Source: a virus (Duplodnaviria; Heunggongvirae; Uroviricota; Caudoviricetes). From it: 28,315 nucleotides of DNA. Shown piece after piece: positions 9,001 through 12,000 of the stretch. The position numbers are program-made. The stretch is from the IMG/VR virus record IMGVR_UViG_2703718786_000008. One strand, written 5' to 3'. Position 1 is the stretch's first letter. The number at the start of each line of letters is the position of its first letter.

Positions 9001-12000
9001 TTCCGGAATGACAGGCTATGACGGTATTGTCGCCTGTCTTCAGCAGGCAATGGCGGATAGCCAGGTGCGGGGCGTACTGCTGGACATTGACAGTCCGGGC
9101 GGGCAGGCCGCCGGCGCGTTTGACTGCGCTGACATGATTTACCGCCTCCGTCAGCAGAAGCCGGTCTGGGCACTGTGCAATGACACGGCCTGTTCTGCAG
9201 CCATGCTGCTGGCGTCGGCCTGCTCCCGACGGCTGGTTACCCAGACATCCCGTATCGGCTCCATTGGCGTGATGATGAGCCATGTCAGCTATGCCGGTCA
9301 TCTGGCGCAGGCCGGTGTGGATATCACGCTGATTTACTCAGGGACGCACAAGGTGGATGGCAATCAGTTTGAAGCCTTACCGGCAGAGGTTCGCCAGGAC
9401 ATGCAGCAGCGCATTGATGCGGCGCGCCGGATGTTTGCCGAAAAAGTGGCGATGTTTACCGGTCTGTCTGTTGATGCCGTCACGGGAACAGAGGCCGCCG
9501 TTTTTGAAGGTCAGTCCGGCATTGATGCCGGGCTGGCGGATGAATTAGTCAATGCGTCGGATGCCATCAGTGTGATGGCCACGGCGCTGAACAGTAATGT
9601 CAGAGGAGGCACTATGCCGCAATTAACTGCAACGGAAGCCGCCGCGCAGGAGAACCAGCGAGTGATGGGGATCCTGACATGCCAGGAAGCGAAAGGACGT
9701 GAACAGCTTGCCACGATGCTGGCAGGACAACAGGGCATGAGCGTTGAACAGGCCCGGGCGATTCTGGCCGCGGCGGCACCGCAGCAGCCGGTGGCATCCA
9801 CGCAGAGTGAAGCCGATCGCATTATGGCGTGTGAAGAAGCGAACGGTCGTGAACAACTGGCGGCAACGCTGGCGGCGATGCCGGAGATGACGGTGGAAAA
9901 AGCCCGCCCGATCCTGGCTGCTTCACCGCAGGCGGATGCCGGACCCTCACTCCGTGATCAGATCATGGCACTGGATGAGGCAAAAGGGGCTGAGGCGCAG
10001 GCTGAACAGCTGGCTGCCTGCCCGGGAATGACTGTGGAGAGCGCCCGGGCTGTGCTGGCTGCGGGATCAGGTAAGGCAGAACCGGTCTCTGCATCCACAA
10101 CCGCCCTGTTTGAACGCATCATGGCGAACCATTCACCGGCTGCGGTACAGGGTGGCGTGCCACAGACGTCAGCAGACGGTGATGCGGACGTGAAAATGCT
10201 CATGGCCATGCCATGAAGTCAGTGCTGACCATCAACAGGAGGTTTTTACAATATGGTAACGAAAAACATCACTGAACAGCGTGCGGAAGTACGTATTTTT
10301 GCCGGTAATGATCCGGCTCATACCGCCACAGGCAGCAGCGGGATTTCCTCGGCAACACCGGCACTGACGCCCCTGATGCTGGATGAAGCCAGCGGGAAAC
10401 TGGTGGTCTGGGACGGACAGAAAGCCGGTAGTGCAGTTGGCATACTGGTACTGCCGCTTGAAGGCACAGAGACGGTACTGACCTATTACAAGTCGGGGAC
10501 CTTTGCGACGGAGGCAATCCGCTGGCCTGAAAGTGTGGATGAACACAAAAAGGCAAATGCCTTTGCCGGCAGTGCCCTGAGTCACGCGGCGCTGCCGTAA
10601 CACGTTATCAGGCCACCGCGGTGGCCTGACTGATTTCTGAATGAAAGGAACTGATTTATGGGATTGTTTACGACCCGCCAGTTACTCGGTTATACCGAAC
10701 AAAAAGTGAAATTTCGTGCGCTGTTTCTGGAGCTGTTTTTCCGCCGTACGGTGAATTTCCATACCGAAGAGGTGATGCTGGACAAAATTACCGGAAAAAC
10801 GCCGGTGGCGGCCTATGTCTCCCCGGTTGTTGAAGGAAAAGTGCTGCGTCATCGCGGTGGTGAAACCCGCGTGTTACGTCCGGGCTACGTCAAGCCGAAA
10901 CACGAATTTAATTACCAGCAGGCGGTTGAGCGTCTTCCCGGTGAAGATCCGGCTCAGCTGAACGACCCGGCCTACCGTCGTCTGCGTATCATCACCGATA
11001 ACCTCAAACAGGAAGAGCATGCCATTGTCCAGGTGGAAGAAATGCAGGCGGTGAATGCCGTGCTGTATGGCAAATACACCATGGAAGGGGATCAGTTTGA
11101 TACTGTCGAGGTGGATTTTGGACGCTCTGAAGGAAATAACATTGAGCAGGCCGACGGTAAAAAATGGTCTGAGCAGGACCGTGATACGTTTGATCCGACG
11201 CATGATATTGACCTCTACTGCGATCAGGCCAGCGGTCTTGTGAATATTGCCATTATGGACGGTACTGTCTGGCGTCTGCTGAATGGTTTTAAGCTGTTCC
11301 GCGAAAAACTGGATACCCGTCGCGGCTCAAATTCACAACTCGAAACGGCAGTGAAAGACCTGGGGGCGGTGGTGTCTTTCAAAGGGTATTACGGCGATCT
11401 GGCCATTGTGGTGGCGAAAACGTCTTATGTGGCAGAGGACGGTACCGAAAAACGTTATCTGTCGGAGGGCACGCTGGTCCTGGGAAATACGGCTGCAGAT
11501 GGGATCCGTTGTTACGGTGCCATTCAGGATGCGCAGGCGTTGTCCGAAGGTGTGGTGGCTTCTTCCCGTTACCCGAAACACTGGCTGACCGTGGGCGATC
11601 CGGCCCGTGAATTTACCATGACGCAGTCCGCACCGCTGATGGTGCTGCCGGATCCGGATGAGTTTGTGGTGGTGCAGGTGAAATAATCCGTGAGCGGGGG
11701 CGAAATGCCCCCGTGTCTTTTTTCACAGGGGGCTGATATGGCAACAAAAGAAGAAAATCAGAAACGTCTTCGTCAACTGGCTGGCCTGCTGGGGCGCGAG
11801 GCGGATATGTCGGGGAGTGCTGCGGATATTGCGCAACGTGTGTCTGAGTGGGAAGAGGAGCTTGCTGCTTCCCGGGAGGGCATTATGCCTGGTGATGAGA
11901 GCGGGCCTGAGCAAAATCACACAGACGATGGTGAGCAGTTGCACAACACTGATGCTACGGATGATGTTAAAGCGGTCCGTGTGCGGAAATGCCTGCATGT

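Follow-up and report, generated by a model that had tools for sequence, protein, structure and literature searches.

Why should a phage gene for the prohead protease and scaffold carry in triplicate an element that bacteriophage lambda has once? The question is raised by a 28,315-nucleotide (nt) stretch of DNA from a virus of the Caudoviricetes (IMG/VR record IMGVR_UViG_2703718786_000008; the whole stretch is called the window below), which is the late region of a lambdoid Escherichia coli prophage. Its homologue of lambda gene C, an S49 prohead protease fused to a scaffold region, ends in three tandem copies of one segment, here termed R1, R2, and R3. The repeat is real, in frame, and old. 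It is also already known, as it amounts to a rediscovery of the phage 21 Tri boxes, and, rather than setting the window apart, it is a trait of its lineage, a prophage family that is very common. As argued below, the units appear somewhat more probably than not to be assembly modules shared by the protease and its scaffold.

Unit positions were taken from the matches of a hidden Markov model (HMM) built from R1, R2, and R3 (Table 1). Each unit spans about 40 amino acids (aa), all three lie in one frame, and the periods are 50 and 47 aa. Local BLOSUM62 scores are 100 for R1/R2, 97 for R2/R3, and 82 for R1/R3, compared with a mean of ~25, a standard deviation of ~5, and a maximum of 60 in 2,000 composition-preserving shuffles (z = 12.6-16.1); when aligned in register, two copies have 53-58% of residues and 58-65% of bases in common. 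A preliminary description of the locus had claimed three diverged in-frame copies at positions 9640-10060, and both the copies and, to within ~10-15 nt at each end, the coordinates proved correct. One could suspect that the repeat arises by chance, from composition, or from misassembly, as the region is Ala-rich and G+C-rich, and a six-unit protein of 657 aa and the N-bearing junctions of a four-unit form (both described below) look artefactual. For the three-unit form this explanation is refuted by z values of 12-16 against shuffles that preserve composition, and by the same three units in independently sequenced phages and at ~2,900 genomic places.

Different codons are used at more than half of the residues that are identical between copies, and exact in-register runs reach 8 nt at most. 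This divergence at both the base and the codon level argues that the repeat is old and not a recent slippage product, as the preliminary description had also held. Tandem Repeats Finder reported nothing on 9400-10300, because the copies are too diverged at the DNA level. An independent sign of the tripled element comes from the PHROG profiles phrog_8399 (head scaffolding protein) and phrog_8940 (capsid assembly protein), each of which matches the C-terminal 200 aa in three separate stretches.

The triplication has long been on record in GenBank. The window gene is 98.6% identical at the nucleotide level to gene 5 of phage 21 (M81255.1, OL657228.1) along its full 1,506 nt, in one ungapped megablast piece, and ~15 further sequenced lambdoid phages show 95-99% nucleotide identity to it. 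Three repeat_region features lie in gene 6 of the record M81255 ("Bacteriophage 21 head gene operon"): the Tri1 box, the Tri box, and the Tri3 box, all noted as "function unknown; putative". Mapped onto the window, they occupy 9681-9784, 9821-9931, and 9962-10075, respectively, and coincide with R1-R3. A literature search on Tri boxes, phage 21 head genes, and the S49 prohead protease/scaffold returned nothing. The preliminary description had treated the repeat as a feature of this phage; that part has to be abandoned, given the annotated phage 21 gene, the three units of Gifsy-1, and the presence of the gene in ~1,860 of 5,426 complete E. coli genomes.

The assignment of the gene to the lambda C/Nu3 type, on the other hand, stands. 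The product matches phrog_53 (head maturation protease) end to end (E = 5e-228) and is 54% identical to lambda C. The PF01343 match has E = 5e-35 and 121 bits, against a cut-off of 24.9, and aa 77-290 of the protein align to the Bacillus subtilis SppA structures 3rst and 4kwb in a PDB sequence search. Ser162 and Lys214, at the expected positions, would form the S49 catalytic dyad. The gene has the portal gene on one side and the genes for the decoration and major capsid proteins on the other, an order also seen in related loci.

A second product is predicted from the same frame. At the corresponding site, phage 21, Gifsy-1, lambda, phi80, N15, and the window all conserve the sequence GGAGG with an ATG a few bases on, and internal initiation at 9614 is predicted from this conserved signal, which is annotated in phage 21. 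The resulting 200-aa scaffold would contain all three units, so that the protease and the scaffold would share them. Gene 6 of N15, like that of phage 21, is annotated from this site. The RefSeq record of lambda (NC_001416) starts nu3 at 5132, giving 201 aa (locus L003, 1165-1770); the conserved GGAGG-plus-ATG signal corresponds to lambda C codon 309 and to a Nu3 of 131 aa (L003, ~1375-1770).

Two further observations concern the same stretch of DNA. The CII-site pattern TTGYN6TTGY occurs inside the scaffold gene at 9619-9632 and 9853-9866 (both on the minus strand), and OL657228 annotates the two matches as CII binding sites; they were rejected as probably due to chance, the pattern having 5 matches in the window against 6.0 expected. 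Antisense open reading frames (ORFs) of 103 aa (9511-9822, minus strand) and 83 aa (9958-10209, minus strand) run across the repeat region, where the sense strand is G+C-rich and rich in Ala codons; they probably arise as its by-products.

Among well-studied relatives, the unit HMM detects one copy in lambda, phi80, and N15, and three in phage 21 and Gifsy-1, which agrees with the earlier statement that the motif is single in lambda. For a broader survey, 1.84 billion representative proteins were searched, the best 150 were taken, and the 125 of these with at least 400 aa were counted. One unit was found in 95 and none was detectable in 29; the sole protein with three (P0122, 505 aa) is 61% identical. 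Three copies are thus far from universal among homologues: one unit is the family norm, and the phage 21/Gifsy-1 lineage is a genuine exception. In agreement with these counts, the family consensus ...ER.RI..IL...EA.GRE.LA..LA....M..E.A...LAAAP occurs three times in the window and once in lambda, phi80, N15, and the 95 single-unit representatives. Throughout the family, nothing else in the C-terminal region is strongly conserved, and the unit is common to protease and scaffold. Its nearly invariant residues include, in R1, Arg317, Glu326/Ala327, Gly329, Arg330, and Ala334.

R1, R2, and R3 each have their own orthologue among the three units of Gifsy-1 (72%, 81%, and 61% identity, respectively, versus 47-61% for non-orthologous pairs). 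Such copy-by-copy orthology implies that the triplication is older than the divergence of these phage lineages of E. coli and Salmonella. It goes together with a change in the linker between the S49 domain and the first unit, which has 20 aa in the three-copy lineage versus a median of 54.5 aa, of low complexity, in single-copy proteins; the whole C-terminal extension is ~200 aa versus 140 aa.

Within E. coli, 1,862 of the 5,426 complete genomes contain the 3' tail of the gene (10080-10216), at a total of 2,907 places. Segment-specific counts (Table 1), used here since megablast spread sampling gave the best place per genome only, indicate that ~97% of the ~2,900 gene copies retain the queried R1 and R2 segments (R3 was not counted separately). 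In every isolated phage with a full-length match the gene is 1,500-1,506 nt long. Among close relatives, rare alleles nevertheless have 2, ~2.5, or 4 units. Alleles of 451 and 452 aa have two units as R1/R2 fusions with two different junctions, the former by an exact 150-nt deletion at the shared 8-nt GAAGCGAA. An allele of 482 aa has lost 19 aa of R2 through a 57-nt deletion between CTGGC(G/T)G microhomologies, another of 472 aa has a 29-aa deletion, and alleles of 551 aa have four units by a 150-nt duplication. The junctions of the variants lie at short homologies in the DNA, and the variant genes are located in complete-looking head and tail operons. Prophages with the 451-, 482-, and 551-aa alleles are present, for example, in GCA_026629155.1, GCA_034422495.1, and GCA_900537015.1. 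The exact 482-aa protein occurs in 3,592 blocks of the assembly collection; its apparent predominance (66 of 120 clusters at 90% identity) was dismissed, as it reflects the listing of clusters and not frequency in complete genomes. In one 551-aa locus (L011, 6001-7656), the duplication junction contains N in both of its copies; this form may be an assembly artefact, as may a 657-aa E. coli protein (P0001) with a 156-aa internal duplication that yields six units.

What kind of structure is repeated? An AlphaFold2 model of R1 (aa 303-360), computed from an alignment of 94 single-copy homologues, has a mean predicted local distance difference test score (pLDDT) of 92.8 and a predicted template modelling score (pTM) of 0.77, with helices at aa 307-323, 331-338, and 345-354. 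The unit is thus predicted with high confidence to be a small three-helix bundle of ~45 residues. The model of the 200-aa scaffold has an overall pLDDT of 61 and was excluded from the fold search; there, R2 repeats the helix pattern of R1, and the first two helices of R3 are merged into one long helix. Between the units pLDDT falls below 50, in keeping with modules on flexible linkers. When the R1 model was compared with predicted viral structures, the best three matches, from Salmonella phage 37, Synechococcus virus S-ESS1, and an uncultured siphovirus (template modelling score on the query, TMq, of 0.83-0.86), were without exception S49 prohead proteases with the module at the C-terminus, suggesting that proteases of this type widely carry it as a C-terminal appendage. 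A Foldseek search against the PDB gave no match with E < 5.

That the units are DNA-binding motifs of the helix-hairpin-helix (HHH) kind is very improbable. The idea comes from a weak Pfam HHH match (PF00633) at aa 427-450 (E = 0.094) and a superficial likeness of LAxxPGMTVExARxILAA to the consensus LxxIPGIGxxxAxxIL; the match, however, has 13.1 bits against a gathering cut-off of 24 and covers one unit only, and fold searches give no support.

The tail behind R3 may continue the pattern. Its motif ALFERIMANHSP (with ALFERIM) resembles a lone first helix belonging to a further unit, and the family consensus includes a tail motif L..AM.....P. The lambda tail that follows the single unit (...APQSAQARSDTALDRLM; SDTALDRLM) aligns to the R1-to-R2 junction (...APQQPVASTQSEADRIM; SEADRIM, the start of R2). 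By this alignment the array can be read as helix1-helix2-helix3 three times over, followed by the orphan, helix-1-like ALFERIM.

How, then, might the repeat act? In lambda, Nu3 is the essential scaffold and C is the protease (PMC10695390), and a yeast two-hybrid study reported Nu3-E, Nu3-Nu3, and C-Nu3 interactions (PMC3224144). The reading that we favour, and consider somewhat better than an even bet, is that the units are tandem assembly or targeting modules of the phage-21-type gene 5/gene 6 pair, probably binding the capsid protein. The full-length 501-aa product would consist of the S49 serine protease followed by three tandem three-helix modules, and the product of the nested start would be a scaffold made of the three modules and the tail only. 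Because both carry the module, protease and scaffold may be drawn into the assembling procapsid via the same contacts. The partner in the shell would most likely be the lambda-E-type capsid protein encoded downstream (10658-11686). In the phage 21/Gifsy-1 lineage, an ancient triplication of the module, while the low-complexity linker ahead of it shrank, would have given each chain up to three binding modules strung on short flexible linkers.

Several observations weigh against this proposal. In the literature within reach, no experiment or solved structure assigns a partner to the module. The PDB sequence search matched the protease domain only, and R2 and R3 are modelled at low confidence only. 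R2 is indel-prone in natural alleles, with in-frame deletions of 3-4, 19, and 29 aa, and the two Arg residues with at least 90% conservation across the family are both missing from R3; thus not all three units need be active. Taken further, the same observations lead to a different explanation, in which one unit, probably R1, is functional, and R2 and R3 are tolerated duplicates that serve mainly as a structured spacer in place of the long low-complexity linker. The shortening of the linker by ~35 aa would fit, as would the abundance of the R2-deleted 482-aa allele among assemblies and the gradient of conservation among three-unit alleles, with R1 most conserved and retaining the full first helix as in lambda, and R3 most diverged. 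Nevertheless, the units are kept copy by copy in phage 21, Gifsy-1, and P0122 with conserved helix-core residues, the R2 segment is intact in nearly all gene copies of the complete E. coli genomes, and a net gain of ~60 aa is not a like-for-like replacement. We therefore regard the spacer explanation as unlikely, though deserving of serious consideration.

The two-hybrid data can also be read differently. The Nu3-Nu3 and C-Nu3 interactions, and the fact that the module is the sole strongly conserved element common to protease and scaffold, would suit units that mediate self-association (scaffold-scaffold or protease-scaffold) rather than capsid binding, with tripling leading to a more cross-linked scaffold core. 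The Nu3-E interaction comes from the same study, however, and neither kind of contact has been mapped to the unit; self-association as the principal role seems to us a decidedly weak candidate.

The suggestion of the preliminary description that copy number could alter scaffold-capsid stoichiometry or protease delivery is a reasonable one. A stronger form, that the number of modules determines the valency with which scaffold and protease engage the capsid protein and that the natural 2-, ~2.5-, 3-, and 4-unit alleles are functional variants tuning procapsid assembly, is a speculation to which we give little credence. Were it true, these alleles might tune, for instance, the number of scaffold copies per shell, the fidelity of assembly, or resistance to capsid-hijacking satellites, and the locus would be a natural allelic series for an experiment on scaffold valency. 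As a discovery the repeat itself has little weight, being long deposited and part of one of the commonest E. coli prophage genes. What is added here is the fold of the unit, one copy as the norm, the age of the triplication, and the rare natural copy-number alleles, which together offer a ready-made system for asking how far lambda-type capsid assembly and protease delivery depend on the valency of the scaffold.

Table 1. Features of the prohead protease/scaffold locus (positions in the window)
Feature	Position (nt)	Strand	Residues or length	Evidence or remark
Portal gene	7129-8721		530 aa	3' end overlapped by the ORF at 8711-10216
Lambda C homologue (gene 5), S49 prohead protease fused to scaffold region	8711-10216	+	501 aa	ORF, GTG start
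Peptidase S49 (SppA-like) domain	9146-9589	+	aa 146-293	Pfam PF01343
Internal Shine-Dalgarno GGAGG	9603-9607	+		Ribosome-binding site of gene 6 in M81255 and OL657228
Predicted nested in-frame scaffold gene (phage 21 gene 6, Nu3 analogue)	9614-10216	+	200 aa	GGAGG-N6-ATG
Predicted three-helix module around R1	9629-9772	+	aa 307-354	AlphaFold2
Unit R1	9653-9775	+	aa 315-355	HMM match, 74.8 bits
R1 third helix plus linker (query)	9715-9805			2,910 places in complete E. coli genomes
Unit R2	9812-9928	+	aa 368-406	HMM match, 82.8 bits
R2 segment (query)	9863-9919		57 nt	2,832 places in complete E. coli genomes
Unit R3	9953-10069	+	aa 415-453	HMM match, 78.2 bits
C-terminal tail	10070-10213	+		Contains ALFERIMANHSP at aa 465-476, nt 10103-10138
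Lambda-D-family decoration gene (HDPD family)	10253-10600			Downstream of the protease/scaffold ORF
Major capsid gene, lambda E family	10658-11686	+		Pfam PF03864, E = 1.6e-65

The remainder of the window contains genes for lysozyme, Rz, a PerC homologue, a Nu1/A-type terminase, head proteins, and tail proteins. Its major capsid protein is 61% identical to lambda E, and E. coli O157:H7 chromosomes contain a 701-nt region of the window with 100% identity. Three loci outside the head operon deserve mention. The homologue of PerC-family transcriptional activators (104 aa, 3524-3838, plus strand; PF06069, E = 4e-44), located between the lysis and terminase genes, looks like cargo rather than a core phage gene and is also present in a related locus (L009). 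A region 3' of the tail-fibre genes (26350-27591, plus strand) encodes a 158-aa tetratricopeptide-repeat (TPR) protein with weak TPR matches and a 250-aa ORF without a Pfam match; cargo or effector genes at the end of the prophage are a possible reading. A 148-aa DUF1327 protein (717-1163, plus strand; PF07041, E = 3e-45) is encoded upstream of the lysis genes.

Tandem three-helix bundles are known from staphylococcal protein A and the affibodies, the GA module, and the Ebh/Embp repeats, which share 8-17% identity with the unit; we see there a generic resemblance of fold with no sign of common descent. The scaffold of P22 has a C-terminal helix-turn-helix domain that binds the coat protein (see the references in PMC11922011). 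A likeness of the unit to gp8-type scaffolds of this kind, as a small helical C-terminal module of a transient scaffold docking on coat, is proposed as an analogy only: the PDB sequence and fold searches retrieved no match to a P22-type coat-binding domain, and the P22 scaffold has a single such domain and no fused protease. Closer at hand is the lambda C/Nu3 pair, which agrees with the window in gene position, S49 domain, and predicted nested scaffold arrangement, and whose unit is 58% identical to R1. It differs in having one unit after a 59-aa linker instead of three after 20 aa; lambda C has 439 aa versus 501 aa, as the preliminary description had stated, and the product from the conserved Shine-Dalgarno-ATG signal would have 131 aa versus 200 aa. 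STM2605 of Gifsy-1, a Salmonella prohead protease homologous to lambda gpC, has 498 aa, three units, and the nested start signal, in a different host genus and at ~71% nucleotide identity to the window gene; its unit 3 keeps the GRE arginine lost in window R3, and its unit 1 has GHE. Finally, the pair of head-tail preconnector gp5 and scaffold gp6 of phage 21 is the same system as that of the window, with 501 aa, a predicted nested 200-aa gene, its ribosome-binding site, and three repeat segments, and is distinguished by a few amino acid substitutions only, such as the tail AMFEHFM in phage 21 versus ALFERIM in the window.

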